This document shows positions 24,883 to 58,632 of a stretch of DNA of 64,000 nucleotides, piece after piece. A program made the position numbers and the translations under genes. Numbering within the stretch: position 1 is the first letter of the stretch; each line of letters begins with the position of its first letter. Below the pieces are notes generated by a model. That model saw only the letters and a list, made by a program, of their open reading frames with translations. It searched no databases and had not been told where the DNA came from. This DNA comes from Perkinsus olseni (taxonomy: Eukaryota): NCBI GenBank assembly GCA_013115125.1, contig JABANN010000091.1:1-64000 (forward strand), given 5' to 3'.

Positions 24883-26454
24883 TTAAACATTCACAGCGAC
24901 ATCCTCTTCCTTAGCAGCCTCACGCTCAGCCTCCGCCTTCCTTGCCGCGTTTTTTGCAGCGACCTTGTTGAAGTAGGGTATCATAGACACCGAAGCGATC
25001 GCGCCAACGATACATAACGCCACGAGAACCATATAGTAGTAATCATAATGGGCACCGGTAACAGCTTCTTCTGAAGGATTTTCCATGTCGAAGTTGGGCA
25101 GCCAGTCCTCGCAGATTTGAAAGAGCGCGGCTGAGAGAACGTTAGAGATGGAAAAGAAACATAAATTGAAGGCGGAAGCAACTGCCTTGAGAGCTCCAGG
25201 AGAGTGAGTAAAAGCAACCTCGTACGAGGTTGAGATAAGGAAGATCTCACCAGCTGCTATCAGCCAGAACTGAGGGATCTGCCACCAAATAGAAACAGAG
25301 AACAGAGGCTGCGACATGACCATGTACTCGACACCGAGGGCAACGAGCAGGGACGCAGCACCGCACAGAGAACCGATGCAGAAACGAACCAGGACAGGAG
25401 GCATTTTACTGTACTTCTTGAGAAGAGGGAATAAGACCGTATCAACCAATATGCTGGTCAAAACCACAGCGATGGGATCAACGTTCTGCATCATCTGGGC
25501 TGGCATCTGCCACCCGAAGAGATTTGTGTCCATCTTCTTGCCCTGAGTTAGGAAGGCGGTCGTCATGTTATTGTAGGCCATCACGAAAGGTATGATGAGG
25601 GAAAATAAAGGCACCAGGCGGAAGAGTGCCTTTGCGTCCCCAATGAAGCCGTCCTTGAAGCGACCACCATTGGACTCCTTGTTCTTCTCTAGAGAGCACC
25701 TCGTGAGAGAGAAGAAAATAACCTTCAAAATCTCCAGCACAGCAGAGCCCTGAGGCTTCGGCTTCACGTAGCGGCCCATCACGTTGCCAACAATGAAAAC
25801 GATAGTTGCAATCACAAAGGCAACCAGAGGGAAGGCGAAGCTTGCGGTGAAGGAAACCGACTCGACCAGTATTGGTGTAACGATACCACCGACAATAGAA
25901 CCAAGGTTGATAGAAGCATAGAAGTAGGTGTAATACCGTGTAATCAGATCTTTGTGTTCCTCAGGATGGAACTGTTGGGCTCCCATGACGTTGACACAAC
26001 TTTTGATACCACCCGCACCAAACGCGATGAGGAAAAGTAGCGACACGTGGATCATCCACGGCTGGCTGATCGAGTGAATCGTAGACAGCGTGAGGAGAGC
26101 CAAGCCCGCCATGTAGACGAAGGAAAATACCAGAATAGTGAGATAGAGCCCTAGAAGCGTATCGGATATGACGGCCGACAGGAGAGGGGTTACGTAAAGT
26201 ATAGCGTTGAACGTTGAGATGTAGGAGTTGGCCGCAGCATCATTGACACCAAGATATTCCTTGAGGAAGATCTGGAGGTTCGGTGTCAAACCATAGAACG
26301 CCAAGCGCTCGCACAACTCTTGCAACAACACGAACATCACCGCCTTCGTCATAGGGTGCTTGTAGTAACGGTACACGTTGCCCGACACATCCGTCCAGGA
26401 GTAGGGCCTGTCACTGGTAGCAGCGGCAGGGGAGGGCGAAGGGGAGCCGACCAT
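24883..26454 (-). CDS. proton-dependent oligopeptide transporter (POT/PTR, SLC15 family), intronless
   Basis: 523-aa ORF with ELCERLAFYG (ExxERFxYYG motif), GAGGIKSCV, FYASINLGSIVG (PTR2 signature), WQIPQFWL..GE and about 12 TM segments. Confidence 0.97.
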   Translation of the reverse strand: MVGSPSPSPAAATSDRPYSWTDVSGNVYRYYKHPMTKAVMFVLLQELCERLAFYGLTPNLQIFLKEYLGVNDAAANSYISTFNAILYVTPLLSAVISDTLLGLYLTILVFSFVYMAGLALLTLSTIHSISQPWMIHVSLLFLIAFGAGGIKSCVNVMGAQQFHPEEHKDLITRYYTYFYASINLGSIVGGIVTPILVESVSFTASFAFPLVAFVIATIVFIVGNVMGRYVKPKPQGSAVLEILKVIFFSLTRCSLEKNKESNGGRFKDGFIGDAKALFRLVPLFSLIIPFVMAYNNMTTAFLTQGKKMDTNLFGWQMPAQMMQNVDPIAVVLTSILVDTVLFPLLKKYSKMPPVLVRFCIGSLCGAASLLVALGVEYMVMSQPLFSVSIWWQIPQFWLIAAGEIFLISTSYEVAFTHSPGALKAVASAFNLCFFSISNVLSAALFQICEDWLPNFDMENPSEEAVTGAHYDYYYMVLVALCIVGAIASVSMIPYFNKVAAKNAARKAEAEREAAKEEDVAVNV

Positions 26455-26466
26455 CTCGAGGAGAGC

Positions 26467-31088: not shown

Positions 31089-31906
31089 AGTCGAACTGAA
31101 CAAACTTATCAAACACAGGAGATGAGCATCGCCAGTCGAAGCTCGACCATCATTCGGCAGGTCACTTCCACTTCAGTGGAGAACTTGAGCCACAGATTTC
31201 ATCGTTACAGCCTCTGAGAGAGGACACGCAGCAACTCTGTGGCCGACGGAGGAGAATGCTAACGACGTCTCCAGTGATGGCGATGGTGTATCGAAGGGAG
31301 GCAAGAGAATGTGTGAGTATGTATAATTATGAAGGCTGCTATAGCCGAGCATTGCTCAGTGCTAAGACATGGGACTGATGCAACACACGACGTAGCTCAT
31401 CCTCTTTCACTCCTCAGAATGGCGCCGCCGAGTCGGGAGTCTTGTTCCGGCGGCAGCAGCTCAGTGAGCCTCACTAGGGGTTTCCCAGCTACTGTTAGTG
31501 CAGATGTGTTCTGCCTCTTTGGTGATAAAAAAAGTTCTACCTCTCCCCCTAAACCTTTTGGTGTGAGACCTCTAAACTTCCGTAGCACTCACTGCAAGAC
31601 CAGTCTCGCACGCCCGACCGAATCACTTTCGCTGTACTAGTTGACCCTAGCCTCTAGCGAGACTCGCCACCAACGCTTAGTTGTGCAAGTGACGGACCCC
31701 TTACTGAGGGCAAGGCAGCTGGATACACCAGCGACTAGTCTGCTTATCGAGCCGCAGCCCCGACACCCTTGGGGGGGGCGCTCTGTGCACAGCCATACCA
31801 CTCCAAACACAACAACTCCGATATGAGAAATCGCTGATCATATTAGTAAGGATAATACTAAGTTGAATCCCTCAGAGCAGAAGCCCTATCCCTACCATCT
31901 CTCGAA

Positions 31907-34835
31907 CTACTCATCGCCATTCCCTGACGACTGGGACTCTGCATCATCCTCACCTTGCAGGGCTGTCGTGGCCAGTTCGCCAAGCAGCGGCGGCGGCTCC
32001 GTGTAGACAGCAGGCTCGCCTTCCCCAGCAACCTTGACAGGAAAGAAGGGTGCCCTCCGCACGCTTCGAGCCCGGCGACTTCAGATCGACCGCGTTATCG
32101 AATCGGTAATTCAAAATGTGATACCATAACAATCGGAACTCACTGGCGTGACTCTCGCCCTCCGTACTTTGCTTCCGGCATGGCCGGTCGCTATACCATA
32201 GGCCCGGTCTAGCACTTGATGGTCCTTCGTCACAAGAGTGCTACCGCCGTACCTGCGACCGGAACGATTTGGTATCCGAGGTCGATGCTGGAAATCCATA
32301 CAAAGATTCCGTGATGAATTTCGTGGCGCACGGTCGGAAAAATAATGCAACAACCCTAGATAACCGCGTATCTTCAAGGAGATAATCAGTAATAACTAAC
32401 TCTTATGATAGAGTAAAACCTTCCGCGTGCGCAATGAGCGTTTCACATGATATCTTTCTTCCATGAACAACACAGAAAGGGTAGATACATTAAAATTGAG
32501 CGGTTTCCAGATTATCTTTTTTGCACGGACCAAAAAGCAATCTCAAATGCATAACAATTCAGACGACCAAAAAGAGCCTATCTCGCCGACGGAGCGACGT
32601 GCCAGGTGCTAGGCAGCGTCCCTGGTGATGCGGCCGCGCAACCTGACCAACTCACTTTGACAGAAGGTCCAAGCCGCTGATCATAATGGCATACGACGTC
32701 GATCCGATCTTGACGATGCCCAGGCCATCAGACAACAACCACGCCACCGGATACAACGACCATGTAACCACCGTTAAATCCGCTATCAGCCGGAACCTAA
32801 GACGGGGTCCGAATTTCGTGGCGCGTGACGGAATCTCACCTCCCAGCGAGCTCTCTGTCACCATGGCTCTTGCTGATGTCCCTCAGTCTACAACCGACAT
32901 ACCAAATCAATGGCACCACCCCCAAACACAGACTGGCCGAGTAGAGGCCTGTCTTAGCCCACCAGGGGGTGATCACGAAGAGGGAACCTGAAGCAGCCAA
33001 GTACGAAGAGAGCGATTGCACTGTCTCCATAAAAATTGAGGTGTGCTTATGCTATCTTCATTGAAGCTTCACCCAGGAAATGAAAAACACGCAATTCACA
33101 TGTTATAAGAAGAAGGGCACTTCACGTCCGGTCATTTCTTCACTTCAATGCTCTGGACAGTTCACTCCAAGCCCAATCTACTTTGCGTTCCAAAACTACA
33201 TCTCATACAACAAGAGAGTAGGCAAATAATGATGATGAGGACGACATGATCTCACCGAATTCGCCGCCAATCCATATCGTATTGGCTACAAGTGCCGGGG
33301 CCACAGCCTTCACCCCCGCCCCACTCATCAACCCTGCACTTATTAGCATGAGGGAAGAGCTGAAAGAAGAAGGCAAGAAAGAGGACTACAGAGTTCCTGC
33401 CAAAGCAGTTAGCGCCAACTGCAAAGTGTATACCAAGACGTGGCATGGAAAGCAGGAAAGAAGGGAAAGTAGGAATGAGAGACCATGCAAAACCAAATTT
33501 CCCCCGGACGTCCTCAGATTTTTTTCGCCAAAAACTGAAGCAGAAAGAGAACTCTTTCGCAGAACACAGGGTTCGTTTTAATACACCGCCATCCTGCTAT
33601 GTGGAGTATCCAAGGTTGAAGCATGCTTCCCGAGCAACTCAAAGATACTCTTACCTCACTATCCACTCTATGTACTTGGCAGGTACCAAAGAGACCACAT
33701 GATGACCCAGCAGAGTGATCCCCGTGAACACAGGGGATAACGCCAGTAACTGAGCACACCGCGATGATAATTTCGTGGCGCAGTGACGCGACCTGCCAAC
33801 TCAGTAAGGTCGAGCATGCTCGACGAGCATATAAACAACTGCAATACATCTTGTACGGCGTAGATTCATCCAGTAGATCGAGAATTTAACATATGAGTTC
33901 ATTACTACAAACAAAACCAATTTCGCAGAACCCTGATAATCCCCTCACCTGAGCCAGATACCCGCAAGCTGTGGTAGCGGTAACAGCAGCAGCGATGTAG
34001 TAGACCGGCCTCCCGCTCCCTACAGGTACCGACCTCCCACGACGTATGAACCCAAAGGACGCTGAGAATAACAGAGAAACGAGATCCAACCAACAAGGAC
34101 ACTCCCAGAAGCCTTACTCATTACGTGGCTTCACAAAAGCTATATAGGAATGATGATAAGACGATACAGTACTTATAGAATCTCAAAAAATTTTCCCACC
34201 AAAATCAAAGCGGAATTTTTCACCCAATCGTTCGTCGAAACCCAACAATCCATTCACACCAACCCTACGCGTTTCCAGTACGACAAACACTCCCAGAATG
34301 ATGTGGTAGTGTGTCAAAAAGGCAAGCGGTAGTCGATTAGTGTCACGATCTGTGATTGTTCGCTATTCCCCATCCCCTAGCACGACTGCCCTACTTTTTT
34401 AGTAAGAACTATTATTTTGCGCCAACCGGCCCGTTCGCTTTAAGCGTTACTCCAGACCCCTTCCAACAGCATAAAACCTCTAGCCCGGTATCCAACCCAC
34501 CCATTATTACCTTTTACCATCACGTACGCAGTAGCAGCCATAATGATATTAGGCACAGTAAAGGAGGCCGCCACCCACGTCAAAGCCATACCAACACTTG
34601 GCAAATTCATATACAGAGTTGATAAGGACGGAGAAATCGACGGTATCTGAGGACCCGTCGCGCTCGCCCGCGTGATCGATTTGTGATACCGTATTACAAA
34701 TGATGACTGTACTAATGCCATCGGTGCGGCCGCGACAGCTCCTCCCGCGAATTTCATCGCCGTCATTGGCGCCGCCAACTTGACCGTGCAAGCCGACAGG
34801 AAGGCCGCACCCAACCACGCCTTGGTAGTCAGACT
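31907..34835 (-). CDS. type-1 (microbial) rhodopsin, 7TM core plus N-terminal hydrophobic extension; 10 exons modelled, true start uncertain
   Basis: Phase-consistent exons 34835-34713, 34646-34518, 34362-34269, 34061-33949, 33749-33655, 33359-33256, 32987-32840, 32796-32656, 32252-32144 and 32032-31907 give TM2 VYYIAAAVTATTACGYLAQL, TM3 AKYIEWIVSSSLML, TM4 LVANTIWIGGEFG, TM6 TVVTWSLYPVAWLL and TM7 GLDLLSKYGG, collinear with bacteriorhodopsin. Confidence 0.9.
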
Positions 34836-35042
34836 CTGAGAGAAAACAAACTCACGAGCTAGAACGCATCCCACTCGACTCGATGCGGCCGAGTTGCGGT
34901 ACGACCAATCTGTTTTCCAAGTGGATGACGCCTATCAGTCCGCGCGTACAATCAATATTACTGAGTTTCACTAGATCCTTTGTTTACGATCAACGGAGAT
35001 AACAACATGCTATCACTAATACTACCAGTTACTCGTCGTTAC

Positions 35043-36693
35043 CCACCCTCGCCAGATGAGCTGGACGACCATCGACTCTACCTTCGGAACTGGACTGCTG
35101 TACACCTGTACTCCTCTGCCCTCCTCCTCCTCCTCCTCCTCCTCCTCACCGAGAGGGGCTATCTCAATCTCCAAGTCCCTCCACACGAAGAAATCGTCGC
35201 TACGGCAGCCCTCCTGAGGAACCGCAACTACTCCTTCAACGACCGCGTATTTAGCAAGTAGTCCGCAGCCAGTATGCCCAAGCAGCTGCAGACGTAAAAC
35301 TCTAATATTCAGCAGAAGTCAAAACGGCTCATCCCTTCACGAAAATCTTGACTAGAAAAGGGAGTTCAATTCTCTGCATGCCCACAACGTCATGAGAGGC
35401 TCCGCAGAGTCACGCAAAGGCCACCCAGAAGCAGTCGGAGCACTCCAGAGAAGTGCTGCGAGCCATGCCGAAAAGAAAGGGGGGATTTCGACTTTCAACC
35501 TCAACTAAAATTTCTTTTGAAAAAATCTCCAGGAAAAATTCACTATCATTTATGCTTCTACTCAAATGTACTACAGTCGTGACGACACGCGGAAACCCAG
35601 GCTGGGACTACGACAGTGTCGTCCATTCGAAACTAAATTTCAAAGAGTACAATATTACCCCTTCGAAGAAGGGCCTCACCTTCGTGCTGAGCTCCCCGTC
35701 CTCCTCCCAGTCGCCCTCCCCTCCTCCGTAAAGCTCCACAACCTGAACAGCCCCATCTGAGAACTCCACTGCCTCTCACCCAGCCCAAGACTGATGATTC
35801 AACCGCAAAAAGCCCTCCACTCCACCGTTACGCATTTCTCAGGCGGAGTAAAACGGACATGCCCATCCGAAATCTATACTATTCCGCCGGCCCTAGAGAC
35901 TATAAACTCATACTTAGTGACAGTGATGCTGGCTGCCAACGCTTGCCACCAGCCCCCTTAAAATGCTCATAGGAGTGCGTAAGCGGGAACTTGATGAGCA
36001 TATTGAAAGCGAAGCTTCACGACCATGGCCGGGCCACCAATAGCCGGCCTCGGTCTTCCGCTAGCGGTTCGAAAATATTCAGTTCACACTACAGATTGCA
36101 CCGTCATAATTAAAAAGCCCGGTCTGAACATAATTTCGTGGCGCGCGACAAAACCATAGGACTTCCCTCAGTATCACCTCTACAGTTCTCCCTTCATCCC
36201 TGCTTGGTGCTCTCCAGACGGCAAAAGTATCGAAGCCCATAAAAGTGACCAACTACCATCAAGAAGGACTTTCTCCTCTACTCACGGCTGCTCATCGCCG
36301 ACAGACTGCGGGCGGCTCAGGAGGTAGAAAAGATCTCTCCCACCTGCGGGTACCATGCAGCCTGGCGAGGGCTATAAGGTTGACTAGACAGATGGGCTGT
36401 CCATGCCGAATAGCATGCTGGCCACATTTCACATATGCTAGTCCGCACAGTCATACAATTTACTTCAACCATGCACAAATCTTTTTTTCTGGGCCGGGGG
36501 CGCCTTCCCTTTTCCCTCCAAAATGCACACCCTATAACTGCCTACAGATCAATCAACTAACGGATAGAGGATTGGCAACGGTGATAGTCCAGTAGACAAG
36601 CAACCGATCTTCTTTTATTTTGAACTAAACTACCATCCTACGGAGACAATAGGCAAAGCCTCGCTCCGCCTCCTCTCCCTCCACAGACTGCAT
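35043..36693 (-). CDS. upstream exons (possibly FHA-like, with a Glu9 tract); either a separate gene or a 5' extension of the rhodopsin
   Basis: MQSVEGEEAERGFAYCL|RGRDLFYLLSRP..; ISDGHVRF..; exon 35213-35043 EGCRSDDFFVWRDLEIEIAPLG(E)9..QLIWRGW ends at a phase-0 GT donor. Internal joins are not fully resolved. Confidence 0.4.
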
Positions 36694-36783
36694 TGAAGGG
36701 TTTTAACGAAACAAGAAAAAAAAGTAACAACAATTTCATATACCGCTCGGGCATGTAAAAAATGATGTAAATAGGCTGGTAAA

Positions 36784-38589
36784 TCATCCTTCGGCAGCGG
36801 CGGCCTACAACCCACCACCGTTCACGATGAGCCTCTCACAGCCGTATTAGTACTACCTCTCCCCCTTCCTCCACAGCGGCTTCCACAGGAGCCTCTTCGG
36901 TAGGGGCGGCGGCGGCCTACAACCCACCACCGTTCACGATGAGCCTCTCACAGCCGTATTAGTACTACCTCTCCCCCTTCCACNNNNNNNNNNNNNNNNN
37001 NNNNNNNNNNNNNNNNNNNNNNNNNNNNNNNNNNNNNNNNNNNNNNNNNNNNNNNNNNNNNNNNNNNNNNNNNNNNNNNNNTCCACAGCGGCTTCCACAG
37101 GAGCCTCTTCGGTAGGGGCGGCGGCGGCGGCGGACTGAGTGCAAGGAAACATCATACACAATTGACTGGCTCGCTCCATTGTGACGGTCTGCCTTGCTAG
37201 CCTAGCTTGATGTTACTACTGTTTTTATAACTCTAGGTCCACTGTGGACGACTCTTGGTAAGCTAGACAATCTGGAGAGCTGAGGCGAGCTAATCCCGCG
37301 CTAAATACTTCCTCGAAAGTATTGAGACAAAATTATATTCTCATTTCGCAGCGGTTAGGGCGGAAAACTAAGCACGTGCCGAACACCATTCCACCTTACC
37401 GTACCACTCCAAACGCAATCGCCCAAAAAACTAGTACCACCCTAGTACCTCTTCAGCGGCCGGCTCCTCCTTCTTTCCTTCAGCTTCCGCAACTTCCTCA
37501 TTCCCGCTCTGAAATAGAAAATTATCAACTCCAAAACAGCGCGCTCCAATGGCCTCAGTACTTCCTTTTCGTTCTCGGGAACAGCAGCTGCAGCTGCTTC
37601 GGTCGGAGTTTCTTCCGCGGCAGAAGGCGCGGGATCTACAGGGCCCTCCTCGTCCTCTACCGCAGGTTGGGCCTGAGACAACTAATGACCGCGCGCCACG
37701 AAAATAGCCCGCGGCTCACGTTCTCTCCTGGCTTGCTCTCTTCAGGCGCATCTTTTTCATTCTGACAAATAGCACAGCGGTCGACATCCTTGTCCGTGAA
37801 CCAAAGCACCCGGGATCCATCCCACCTTCCCCCATTCATTAGCATCATAAGCCGCAACTGCCGGTACCCCATCCACGTTGATCACAGGCGCCTGGGCAGC
37901 CTCGCCATCAGCCGGTTTATCTACAACATGTGCTAATCTTGCTCTCTTACATTTCCTCAACGTTTCCCTCAATCAGAGAATACAACTAGCCCAACAATCA
38001 GAAGGTTTTCCTTCAACCAGACCAGATTACCACCCTTCTTAACAACCAGTATGATTGATATTATGGAGCCGTTAAGCGCGAGCAACGCGATCATACCAAC
38101 CATACTCAACCAGCTATAGCCCCTATTGAGGGACGCCGCTGACTTCGCCATTTCTTGCGTTCAATACGGACGACGACGACGACGACGACGACAGAAAAGC
38201 AGCACGGGTAGCATCTGCGGCAAGATCACGTTAATGGATTTCACGACGAAAAACGGATTTTCCGCGCCGAATTTTCCGATTTTCCCCAAAAGTTTGGTCA
38301 CCGGTGGCTGCACTTGCCAGCCCCTGAACATAGTTCGACACCGACGCCCTCATACTCTCAGGACCAGCGTCTGAGAAAAAGCAAGTGAAGACAAGTGGAG
38401 CAAGATCGCGCAAGCTCACCGCCATTCCCAGCTGCAGCCGGAGCTTCCTCTTCGACAGGTTTGGGCTCCTAAAAAGTAAAGACACGCATGTCCATGAACA
38501 ATCGAGTATCTAACCGTTTCATGTACCTCAACTGGGACCGTCTTGACGACCTCCTCAGGCTTGCTGGAAGAAGATGCTCCGCAACCCAT
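36784..38589 (-). CDS. N-acylated (MGC motif) hydrophilic Glu/Ala/Pro-rich protein, multi-exon, spans the assembly gap
   Basis: MGCGASSSKPEEVVKTVPVE|EPKPVEEEAPAAAGNG|..KPADGEAAQAP..|AQPAVEDEEGPVDPAPSAAEETP..|AAAAPTEEAPVEAAVEEGGE (repeated)|AAAAEG*. Confidence 0.7.
36805..37134 (-). repeat. 112-nt tandem repeat consisting of a 60-nt exon plus a 52-nt intron
   Basis: Identical introns at 36805-36856 and 36917-36968; exon copies at 36857-36916 and on both sides of the gap. Confidence 0.85.
36984..37081. other. assembly gap (98 N)
   Basis: Run of N. Confidence 1.
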
Positions 38590-43621: not shown

Positions 43622-44945
43622 GTGGACTGCCTATCAAACGAGCCAGCGGTGGACACGATGCTCACGTTGGGCGTGCAAGTGATCGACACAGGCTCGATCC
43701 TCTGTAACGTCACTCGACAGGAGATGTACGAGTACTTGTCTTCCGCCGCCGAGACGCTTGAAGTGAAAGTTCTATGTGACCCCAATGTTGAATTTGAGCC
43801 CGCCACGGGGTTTACCGGGACGGAGAAGAAAAAGAAGAAAGAACGGTCGACAACAACGACTGCGACCACTCCAACCCCAACCGGGCCAACTCTATCCAAA
43901 CTCGGCGTGGATGACAAGTTCTCTGATCGACAGTGGAACCTCGAAGCTATTGGTATAAAGGAAGCATGGAGAGAATGAAAAAGGGCCGGGTTTGAGAACA
44001 GGGGAATGTTGTTGCCGTCATTGACTACGAGCATGCGGATTTGCGGGAAATATTCTCACCTCTAGCACAGCCTGTGCTAGAGGTGTGCCAGGTGCTGAGA
44101 GCCTGTGCTGCACAGGAGGCGTCCGCGGTTACAACTTCCACGATAATAATAATGATACCAGCGACGTTTTGTTGGACCATGGCACGTTCGTTGCCGGTAT
44201 CATAGGAGCCACGACCAATAACACTATCGGGCTAGCAGGCATCGCTGACTTGAAGATGATGCCCATCAACGTCACCAACTCGGAAGGCTCCGCTCCTCTC
44301 GCCGAGTTGGCCAAAGGGCTCAACTATGCTCTCGACGATGGTGCGAAGGTGTCCTGCATTGCCTTTGCCAGTAGTGGTCCCAGTCCGGTACTCGAGAAGG
44401 CGATAGAGAGAGCTGCCCAGCTTGGTCATCTCGTCGTCACGGCTGCTGGAAACGGAGGACGCGACATCACCCAAAGGAAGCGTTTCCCGTGCGCCTACAC
44501 CGAGAGATTGGATGCGTTGTGCGTCGCTGGCAGTGATGAACGCGGCCGACTCGCTCATAGGAGCAACTTTGCTTCTTATGTTGACATCGCAGCCCCTAGG
44601 ACACGCATTTGGTCGGCTGGTATCCATAATAAGTACTTTCGTGATAGTGGCACTTCCGCTGCGACTGCTCACGTCGCTGGAGTTGTCAGTCTTTTATACG
44701 GCATGGATCACCCCTTAAGGATAGTTATAAGCGCGCTGGTGAAGGTAGTCGATGTTCTCTTGGACAGCTCTGGGCGGTCTTTACCGCATTTTGGCGTGGT
44801 AAACGCGAAAAGAACTGTGGAGTGGGCTGAAATTATGGCCACGTTTCCGCCTACCGCCTCACCGAAATCTACAACCCAGTCGGTGCCCTGGACGACACCT
44901 ACAACTGCTTCAACCCTGTCGCCGAATTTCGGCGGCCGAAACTAA
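43622..44945 (+). pseudogene. subtilisin-like serine protease (peptidase S8), disrupted
   Basis: QWNLEAIGIKEAW is followed by TGA (43976-43978); VVAVID (44008-44025) is out of frame and followed by an apparent deletion; then DHGTFVAGIIGA, AAGNGG, SNFASYVDIAAP and SGTSAATAHVAG. Confidence 0.88.
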
Positions 44946-57200: not shown

Positions 57201-58632
57201 GTCCGAGAAAAGCACCACCGCTTCCTGCTCCTCTTCGTCGACGTCGCTCGAAGACTCCCAAGACGACTGAAGCAGCGAGTCGAGAAACTTTACCGCGCGC
57301 CACGAAATTGTCGCCTACAAAGCTGCCCGTGGCCAGTGAGTTTATACTGGAGGAGGCTGTCGAGCTTGAATCCCACTGAAAAAAAACTACACTCGCCGTG
57401 TGTCACTCGGACACAATCTGGGGCTCGTTCTGCTCGTCCTGAAGTAGCGCTAAGAACTTGTTCAAGACCTAGCAAGAGTTCCAAATCTACAAAACGGAAA
57501 CACACCCATTAAATATGCCTTCAGTTAGATGGCCACTGCTGCACAGGAAGCAGCTCTCTCACACAGCCAGAGACAAATTCAACAAGCAGTGGGGCTGCTC
57601 GATAATCTTCACCGCAGGGAGCACCCTATGTACAGTCGGAATACAGAGATCATATCAAGTTCCACAACCACGCAACAAAATCGATCAGCTGATCGATTTT
57701 GACCTCCCCACCAGTCCCTACACCATCAAACGTTTCACCACACAACTGCCGCCCTCCTAACAGGAACAAAGTGCCATCAGTCAGAGCGAATACACCATGA
57801 CCAGTACCTACAGCGCGGGCGTCTTGGAGAACTTTTCCGGAGAAAGATCTCAATTTCTCCTTGCGTTTTCCTACGCCGTTTCTGTTCAGTAGCCGTGAGT
57901 CCATCGACACTGACTTGACCATCACAGACTACTGACCGCCAGGTGGACCCCAGAAGACAATCCGTGCCTGAGAAAAATGCAAAATACCAGCCCATTTCAA
58001 ATGAAACTCAGATCGACTCCCGAAACCTTAACTAATCCTCAGCGCTAATCGGACTGAACCTTAGCCTTAGCCTTCGGCGTTGGACACGCCCGAGCCCCAA
58101 CTTTGAACTGAGATCGACTATATATACCGAAACCTGAACTAATTCCCGATCCTAGTCTAACTAAGTCGGTTTTCGGCGTTGAACTCAGACAAACATGTTG
58201 AACTAATATCGACTCCACAACCAACTCCGATGTGGAACTGGAACTGAAGGCCCACAATTCATAAAGATACTACCCAGTATCACAGAAAACTGCTCCTTTT
58301 TACTCTCCTCCTTCCTACTGCCGTTCTCCGCTGCGTCGTAACCTGACGGAAACCTACACAGCTGAAGATTTCCATAAAAGGCCCAAAATTTTGGATCCGA
58401 ATATTTTCCCTCGGCATGTCGCTACGTTTTTTCCCCCGTGGTCCAGCTCGGACCGCGGATCAACCATTGGACGGCTTGCAACGTGGATCTTCAGCGCTTG
58501 GACCGTCCGAGCACAGAAGACTCTTCCCCGAAACATACTCGAGATTTCCGCGACTCGCTCACCTTTCTGCATCATTTCGGCATGACGGCGTAAAAGAGCC
58601 GCCCTGCCAAAGATGGGCCCTACAGCCATCAT
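54290..58632 (-). CDS. BNR/Asp-box and Kelch-like beta-propeller repeat protein, multi-exon, limits uncertain
   Basis: Repeated SxDxGxxW boxes (SDVCRSDDGGRTW, DLWMSDDLGRTW, TSDDGGIAW, RSWSLGRSW) alternate with APWQPRADFAC..VLVYGG, AWCPRDDHGV..ILMVG and LFLLGG. Confidence 0.65.

Follow-up and report, generated by a model that had tools for sequence, protein, structure and literature searches.

Described rhodopsins and the Perkinsus gene

The haloarchaeal pumps of the bacteriorhodopsin (BR) type, which include bacteriorhodopsin, deltarhodopsin, the archaerhodopsins and H. walsbyi BR-I, gave, among solved structures, the best sequence and structure matches to the protein that we describe here, a rhodopsin encoded by a gene of Perkinsus olseni. 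P. olseni is a non-photosynthetic mollusc parasite; it is an alveolate (phylum Perkinsozoa), as a preliminary description made from the DNA letters had guessed. The gene lies on the minus strand of contig JABANN010000091.1, in a stretch of 64,000 nt that we call the window and whose positions we use throughout. Residues are numbered by the 455-residue open reading frame (ORF) of the gene, and BR numbers give their bacteriorhodopsin equivalents. On balance, sequence and predicted structure lead us to favour a reading of the locus as an expressed, Perkinsus-only rhodopsin of BR fold that would bind retinal and act as a slow-cycling sensor.

With the BR-type pumps the Perkinsus protein shares the B-C beta-hairpin and the equivalents of Y57, W86, W182, Y185, P186, W189, D212 and K216. 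Unlike them (21-25% identity) it has K82, E85, S89, S90, S91, S or N at 96, N115, W118, E122 and S215, as well as a polar cytoplasmic half of helix G, N- and C-terminal extensions, and a nuclear gene with 11 spliceosomal introns. The BR-like rhodopsins of marine protists (Pavlovales P0015/P0033 and the metatranscriptome cluster P0013) seem to be the closest non-prokaryotic matches and belong to the same fold family, but they carry the canonical R-D-T-T-P-D/E and match a Perkinsus profile at E 1.8e-8 to 1.4e-4. A eukaryote source is on record only for P0015/P0033; for P0010 only the sequence suggests a eukaryote.

Sensory rhodopsins I and II, Anabaena sensory rhodopsin and Neurospora NOP-1 are like the Perkinsus protein in having no carboxylic residue at 96, and they keep R82 and D85. 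The conserved cytoplasmic elements of the Perkinsus protein could contact a partner, as in these donor-less sensory rhodopsins. Rhodopsin guanylyl cyclase and rhodopsin phosphodiesterase also have a long N-terminal extension, no signal peptide and a hydrophobic segment before helix A. However, the Perkinsus protein is without a cyclase, phosphodiesterase or kinase domain, and its putative extra helix is modelled with low confidence. The rhodopsins of Oxyrrhis and dinoflagellates are alveolate proteins too, one of the hosts being non-photosynthetic; they are laterally acquired, bacterial-type proteorhodopsins with very high expression, according to the accessible part of PMC3942190. In contrast to these, the Perkinsus protein is BR-like and its gene has 11 introns.

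Fold and family

We translated seven candidate minus-strand exon ORFs and compared each of them with Pfam. One of the seven, at 32655-32882, matched the rhodopsin family PF01036 on its own (30.1 bits, E 4.2e-7, cut-off 24.6). When this 76-residue piece was used as a query, it found seven proteins among 152 candidates, with up to 100% identity, and all seven were from Perkinsus (four from P. olseni, two from P. marinus and one from P. chesapeaki). The first 633 residues of one P. olseni protein, P0003 (FOL46_009709, 823 residues), follow the window letter for letter via GT..AG introns. This mapping and the Pfam match agree with the preliminary description, which had placed a microbial rhodopsin gene between 31907 and 34362. 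Longer public proteins also scored above the gathering cut-off for PF01036 (P0003 with 56.7 bits and E 3.1e-15, P0004 with 54.6 bits, P0005 with 56.8 bits), and P0003 covers profile positions 4-212 of 224. No rhodopsin model of NCBIfam matched.

For structure prediction with AlphaFold we supplied 21 aligned rows, the first being the 433-residue part of P0003 that is identical to the window protein. The predicted local distance difference test score (pLDDT) was above 90 for 179 of the 433 residues, which make up the seven helices and a B-C beta-hairpin like that of BR; the first 126 residues and the tail stayed below 50. A Foldseek comparison of the model with the PDB was headed by deltarhodopsin (4fbz) and many BR entries, with TM-scores (target) of 0.86-0.89, root-mean-square deviations of 2.2-2.4 A and 21-25% identity. 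A sequence search of solved structures pointed the same way (best 5kkh, E 6.3e-13, then 4fbz, E 2.2e-12). The Schiff-base lysine stands four residues past the conserved aspartate (D374-L-L-S-K378), and it is invariant in our alignments A1 and A2; the homologue search with A2, in which the 8000 candidates sharing most words were scored, gave 13 proteins. By profile, alignment and model, the core is a seven-transmembrane (7TM) domain of bacteriorhodopsin fold, and the protein a type-1 rhodopsin.

Around this core there are 150 residues before helix A and 77 at the C-terminus. Residues 1-88 have a net charge of -18, and the start of the protein did not look like a signal peptide by inspection. 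They are followed by an Ala-rich segment (residues 90-133, Kyte-Doolittle peaks 1.34-1.45) that is conserved in P. chesapeaki. This segment may form an additional transmembrane helix before helix A, giving eight helices and a cytoplasmic N-terminus. Because the start is not signal-peptide-like, one extra helix would allow the acidic N-terminus to be cytoplasmic while helix A keeps its usual orientation. At the other end, Pfam reported no family in the two tail exon ORFs and nothing besides rhodopsin in P0004 and P0005, and this includes the cyclase, phosphodiesterase and kinase domains of enzyme rhodopsins. The acidic tail had been described as lacking an enzyme domain, which agrees with these searches.

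Transcripts and gene structure

Transcript contigs were taken from four of 21 listed RNA runs (X1, X21, X2 and X3, from four studies) and compared with the window over 31700-36850; X3 comes from a relative that diverges by a few per cent. Spliced contigs of the gene were present in all four runs. The gene has 12 exons and 11 introns (Table 1), and its mRNA starts at about 36252. The ORF encodes 455 residues when exon 11 ends at the 32144 donor, the one found in X3 and the public models, and 447 residues with the 32168 donor of X1, X21 and X2; the two products differ by eight in-frame, basic-rich residues in the C-terminal part. Past the stop codon, the contigs continue into the 3' untranslated region (UTR) to 31824 in X21, 31862 in X3 and 31878 in X2.

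These transcripts change part of the exon structure proposed earlier, in which eight exons within 31907-34362 made up a complete 7TM domain. There are seven exons in that interval, and helix A is encoded outside it, at 34646-34511. The proposed first exon (34062-34362) is intron, since the transcripts of all four runs join 34061 to 34511. The proposed division of the Schiff-base lysine codon (AA|G) between 32656 and 32252 was seen directly: the contigs of all four runs, and thus of four studies, contain this junction.

At the 5' end, the X21 contig stops at 36254 and carries 10 further letters that do not match the window. Together with the genomic AG, these letters are the last 12 nt of the spliced leader PmaSL1 as given in the accessible part of PMC3101222. 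An in-frame TAG lies directly upstream of the trans-splice acceptor. At least some of the mRNA is spliced-leader trans-spliced, and the locus is a real nuclear gene of P. olseni that is transcribed.

When we compared the coding sequence with the divergent X3 contig, 32 codons were changed, 24 synonymously and 8 non-synonymously, with three more differences outside the coding sequence. The excess of synonymous changes indicates purifying selection on the gene. Inconsistent public models, such as a three-part fusion (P0003) and two truncated or mis-spliced models (P0007 and P0008), could suggest a pseudogene or an artefact of gene prediction. We regard this as hardly credible, because the spliced mRNA has an open frame of 455 codons, spliced contigs occur in every run, synonymous changes outnumber the others, and the gene is conserved across P. 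olseni, P. chesapeaki and P. marinus.

Key residues

The equivalents of W86 (W244), W182 (W343), Y185 (Y346), P186 (P347), W189 (W350), D212 (D374) and K216 (K378) named in the preliminary description hold in our alignments, and Y57 (Y212) is also kept, so that the aromatic cage around retinal (W244, W343, Y346, P347, W350 and Y212) is in place. The acidic D354 stands at or close to the E194 position. Across the three Perkinsus species the lysine, D212, the helix F tyrosine and the second tryptophan are invariant. The P. marinus row, which is truncated before position 96, has L at 182.

The nine substitutions listed earlier stand as well. Six of them affect the counter-ion region and helix C, namely R82K (K240), D85E (E243), T89S (S247), T90S (S248), P91S (S249) and D96S (S254). 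The others are D115N (N273), M118W (W276) and G122E (E280), to which we add A215S (S377); the equivalent of T46 is A201. P. olseni and P. chesapeaki agree in K/E/S/S/S, N115, W118, E122, the E194-like Asp, D212 and K216. Position 96 (codon 33338-33340, minus strand) is Ser in the window haplotype and in P0003, and Asn in P0001, P0002 and P0004 of P. olseni and in P. chesapeaki and P. marinus. This makes E-S-N/S the motif of the family. It differs from the pump pattern of Asp85, Thr89 and a carboxylic residue at 96, and R82 is replaced by lysine (K240) in P. olseni and P. chesapeaki. Chloride pumps have TSA or NTQ and sodium pumps NDQ. The earlier statement that ESS is unlike DTD/DTE, TSA/NTQ and NDQ applies to E243/S247/S254 of this gene, with N at 96 in other Perkinsus sequences.

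No Asp or Glu occurs in the helix B region (residues 193-216). Past the lysine, helix G continues with a conserved polar stretch, Y-G-G-S-T-L-V-T-K. It is followed by a conserved cytoplasmic helix, with pLDDT of 90-96 up to model residue 380, and the tail motif A-V-Y-x-E-x-P-P-L-L-G-E is conserved among the Perkinsus sequences. The E-x-x-x-L-L in the tail fits an acidic dileucine pattern and may be an endolysosomal sorting signal. For E280, helix periodicity leads us to infer a place on the G122 face, because helix D is unbroken in the model and N273 and W276 are aligned alike by MAFFT and HMMER.

Isolation and phylogeny

A profile of three Perkinsus sequences was searched with HMMER against 1.84 billion representative proteins. 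There were 14 matches at E<=0.001, four at E<=1e-10 and three at E<=1e-30. Five of the 14 were Perkinsus proteins, by name or near-identity, and one of these (P0012) matched the upstream acidic part only. The other nine were BR-like (E 1.8e-8 to 1.4e-4) and included a Pavlovales haptophyte, a marine metatranscriptome cluster and haloarchaeal-type sequences. Since nothing outside Perkinsus did better than E 1.8e-8 in this search, the clade is, by sequence, lineage-specific and so far only in Perkinsus (P. olseni, P. chesapeaki and P. marinus). The protein shares 18-28% identity with the 14 rhodopsins from outside Perkinsus in the alignment.

We built a tree from 20 rows (four Perkinsus and 16 homologues), from which P0011, other fragments and cluster duplicates were omitted and which had no named channelrhodopsins, enzyme rhodopsins or proteorhodopsins. 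The four Perkinsus rows grouped together (Shimodaira-Hasegawa-like approximate likelihood ratio test, SH-aLRT, 100), and their stem was 2.92 substitutions per site long. The sister group was unsupported (SH-aLRT 53), and long-branch attraction was flagged. Within this 20-row set the Perkinsus rows stand alone on their stem and, with the best outside match at E 1.8e-8, do not fall inside a characterised clade.

All 16 reference rows have R82, T-T-P at 89-91 and D115, and 15 of them have D85. The exception at 85 is P0014, a BR-like metagenomic singleton with E85, S96 and S215, but with R82 and T-T-P kept. We considered it as a specific sister and rejected it, because it has only 29% identity and its closest relatives are haloarchaeal BRs (31-40% identity). 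None of the 16 non-Perkinsus reference sequences has the simultaneous changes at 82/85, 96 and 118/122/215, and the Perkinsus protein may therefore have spectral or transport properties that are new. As a lead only, the nearest ESM Atlas clusters were fungal and channelrhodopsin-like PF01036 proteins (scores 0.90-0.95).

Function

The protein probably binds retinal, judging from the residues that it keeps. R82K and D85E together would be a length-compensating swap that preserves the counter-ion complex with D374. With no carboxylic donor (S or N at 96) and no T46 (A201), reprotonation from the cytoplasm would be slow, and slow cytoplasmic reprotonation is a hallmark of sensory or otherwise non-BR-type rhodopsins. 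The conserved cytoplasmic helix after helix G and the C-terminal motif would be candidates for partner binding or sorting. Because the counter-ion pair is remodelled, the donor is missing, the colour positions are changed, and a cytoplasmic helix and a tail motif are conserved, we tentatively read the protein as a slow-cycling photosensor or signalling rhodopsin and not as a BR-type outward proton pump. We would rank the possible roles, most likely first, as a photosensory or slow-cycling rhodopsin, a donor-less or inward pump, a chromophore-free role, and a channel. The preliminary description had proposed a sensory, spectrally shifted or otherwise novel rhodopsin; the PF01036 match, the transcripts with the 32656/32252 junction and the isolated position in the tree support that proposal as far as computation reaches.

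Three positions around the beta-ionone ring that are known switches of colour and ring conformation are all changed (M118W, G122E and A215S), from which we would expect the protein to absorb at an unusual wavelength. In archaerhodopsin-3, which absorbs maximally at 552 nm, the mutations M128A/G132V/A225T, at the positions of BR 118, 122 and 215, brought the maximum to 454 nm and inverted the photocurrent (accessible part of PMC4479019). The W/E/S spectrum would be blue-shifted if E280 is neutral and acts sterically; an ionised E280 near the ring would give a red shift. Alternatively, E280 may form a pair with K293, which is invariant and lies at the beginning of helix E.

That triple mutant still transports, in the inverted direction (PMC4479019, same part of the text), and so it also bears on whether the Perkinsus protein is a light-driven ion pump, that is, a donor-less outward or an inward proton pump, for example of the vacuole or endomembranes. 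Its fold and its nearest solved relatives are those of proton pumps, the counter-ion carboxylates E243 and D374 and the E194-like D354 are retained, and donor-less and inward pumps exist. The E-x-x-x-L-L of the tail, as a possible endolysosomal sorting signal, would suit an endomembrane pump. However, the protein has no Asp or Glu at 96, no Thr at 46, Lys for R82 and Ser for both T89 and P91, and its identity to the non-Perkinsus rhodopsin rows is low. We consider a pump unlikely.

A light-gated ion channel is less likely again, and in our view very improbable. Channelrhodopsins also have Glu at the D85 position, there are small polar residues in helix C (S247-S249 and S254) and, past the lysine, in the cytoplasmic part of helix G (G, G, S, T, T), and one public record is labelled 'ion channel activity'. 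One of the three nearest ESM Atlas clusters was channelrhodopsin-like (score 0.90), again only as a lead. But glutamates of helix B line the pore in chlorophyte channelrhodopsins and helix B is free of Asp and Glu here, the top sequence and structure matches are pumps, and the database label is automatic.

The bulky and charged W276 and E280 at ring-pocket positions could also mean that the protein no longer uses retinal and is a light-independent membrane protein, like the fungal opsin-related proteins. The literature search on Perkinsus carotenoids and retinal gave no evidence of a retinal supply, and the nearest ESM Atlas clusters include fungal PF01036 proteins, which is a lead only. However, fungal opsin-related proteins have lost the lysine, and K378 is present and invariant, as are D212, the helix F tyrosine and the second tryptophan in the three Perkinsus species. 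P. olseni and P. chesapeaki retain W182, although the P. marinus model has L, and the gene is under purifying selection. Taken together, a retinal-free role seems improbable, if slightly less so than a channel.

Several points weigh against a retinal-binding sensor, or against parts of the evidence for it. W276 and E280 could block the ring pocket, the search of the literature on Perkinsus carotenoids and retinal returned nothing relevant, and the parasite spends much of its life inside host tissue, where there is little light. E85 and D212 are both kept, which is compatible with proton transport. The alignment behind the AlphaFold model was shallow (21 rows), and the putative extra helix has pLDDT below 50 and is weakly hydrophobic. 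MAFFT placed a one-residue gap in helix D that puts E280 at position 123, whereas HMMER aligned the helix with no gap. Three of the four runs were typed as RNA by an automatic guess only, though their contigs are spliced, and the spliced leader was seen on one contig of one run.

A more far-reaching proposal would be a new functional class of eight-helix type-1 rhodopsins with the N-terminus inside and no enzyme domain, in which W276 and a buried carboxylate, E280, would reshape the beta-ionone pocket and a K/E/D triad would serve as counter-ion. Such proteins would have an unusual colour, would be neither BR-type pumps nor known channels, and would act by signalling through the cytoplasmic helix and tail or by inward transport, in light sensing by zoospores, for example. 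We think this full combination is doubtful and put it forward as a speculation. More broadly, conservation and expression of a rhodopsin in a mollusc parasite that does not photosynthesise would imply an undescribed light-dependent step, which could lie in zoospore behaviour, vacuole physiology or signalling.

Public gene models

The existence of the gene is already public under automatic names; only its peculiarities are undescribed in the searchable literature. The database names of the Perkinsus matches are 'hypothetical protein', 'ion channel activity', 'rhodopsin, partial' and 'Cruxrhodopsin-2, putative'. Full-text searching, with subscription journals and supplements outside its scope, found no paper describing a Perkinsus rhodopsin, and none is mentioned in the accessible parts of PMC4266641, PMC6324907, PMC9878933, PMC2781859 and PMC3942190.

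Our transcripts correct the public gene models, one of which appears to join three genes. P0003 spans an acidic protein (38589-36857), the rhodopsin (36252-31907) and a HIT-domain protein (31097-29536), all on the minus strand. We conclude that it probably fuses three genes, because the transcripts carry a spliced-leader acceptor at 36254 and the contigs run past the stop codon at 31909-31907. The HIT domain is assigned to the downstream gene, since the contigs of three runs continue beyond the rhodopsin stop codon. Upstream of 35742, the transcripts splice to 36178 and not to 36857 as in P0003. Neither of the joints that P0003 requires (35742->36857 for the N-terminal fusion and 31911->31857 for the HIT fusion) was seen among the contigs, in a compared region that ended at 36850 and with contigs that prove presence and not absence. 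A minor fused transcript may exist alongside the separate rhodopsin mRNA.

Table 1. Exons, splice junctions, repeat copies and neighbouring features of the rhodopsin gene in the window.
Feature	Position	Strand	Content or support
Exon 1	36178..36254	-	Trans-splice acceptor AG 36254-36253, 5'UTR 36252-36241, ATG 36240
Exon 2	35680..35742	-	Residues 22-42, acidic N-terminal region
Exon 3	35082..35213	-	Residues 43-86, acidic, poly-Glu run
Exon 4	34698..34835	-	Residues 87-132, Ala-rich moderately hydrophobic segment, candidate extra helix 'TM0'
Exon 5	34511..34646	-	Residues 133-177, helix A; model helices 129-138 and 142-166 (model numbering)
Exon 6	33949..34061	-	Residues 178-215, basic A-B loop and helix B with Y212 (Y57)
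Exon 7	33655..33749	-	Residues 216-247, B-C beta-hairpin, start of helix C K240-Y-I-E243-W244; S247 codon split AG|C
Exon 8	33256..33359	-	Residues 247-281, rest of helix C (S248, S249, S254), helix D (N273, W276, E280)
Exon 9	32840..32987	-	Residues 282-330, helix E and E-F loop
Exon 10	32656..32796	-	Residues 331-378, helix F (W343, Y346, P347, W350, D354), helix G to D374, S377, AA of Lys378
Exon 11	32144..32252	-	G completing Lys378, polar end of helix G, conserved cytoplasmic helix
Exon 12	31824..32032	-	Acidic C-terminal tail, E-x-x-x-L-L, stop TAG 31909-31907, 3'UTR to at least 31824
Acceptor of exon 12	32032		4 of 4 runs, from donor 32168 in three and 32144 in one
Junction, divides Lys codon	32252/32656		4 of 4 runs
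Junction	32796/32840		4 of 4 runs
Junction	32987/33256		4 of 4 runs
Junction	33359/33655		4 of 4 runs
Junction	33749/33949		4 of 4 runs
Junction	34061/34511		4 of 4 runs
Junction	34646/34698		3 of 4 runs; X2 without cover
Junction	34835/35082		3 of 4 runs; X2 without cover
Junction	35213/35680		3 of 4 runs; X2 without cover
Junction	35742/36178		3 of 4 runs; X2 without cover
13-mer copy	32317-32329	-	Sense strand of rhodopsin-gene intron
13-mer copy	32812-32824	-	Sense strand of rhodopsin-gene intron
13-mer copy	33769-33781	-	Sense strand of rhodopsin-gene intron
13-mer copy	36132-36144	-	Sense strand of rhodopsin-gene intron
13-mer copy	37693-37705	+	1 mismatch
13-mer copy	57297-57309	+	
Assembly gap (N run)	36984-37081		Within upstream gene region
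Neighbour ORF	24886-26466	-	POT/PTR2 peptide transporter family, 195 bits
Neighbour ORF	44025-44942	+	Subtilase family, 102 bits

Surroundings and a dispersed 13-mer

The surroundings of the gene are eukaryotic, rich in introns and have a GC content of about 0.50. The upstream acidic protein in P0003 begins with M-G-C-G, a possible dual-acylation signal, and an assembly gap falls within the region of this upstream gene. Peptide transporter and subtilase ORFs are found among the neighbours (Table 1). None of the 10 longest of the 49 window ORFs of at least 130 residues, which were the ones scanned, is a retinal or carotenoid gene.

A 13-mer, GCGCCACGAAATT, preceded by a similar prefix of 5-6 nt, has six copies in the window against 0.06 expected, four of them in introns of the rhodopsin gene. 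The unmatched ends of X1 contigs begin exactly at the edges of 13-mer copies, and the letters of these ends were looked for across the window and not found. Because the X1 contigs break at its copies and the loose letters are absent from the window, the 13-mer looks like a dispersed repeat. One odd joint in X1, 32832->33768, connects two of the copies.

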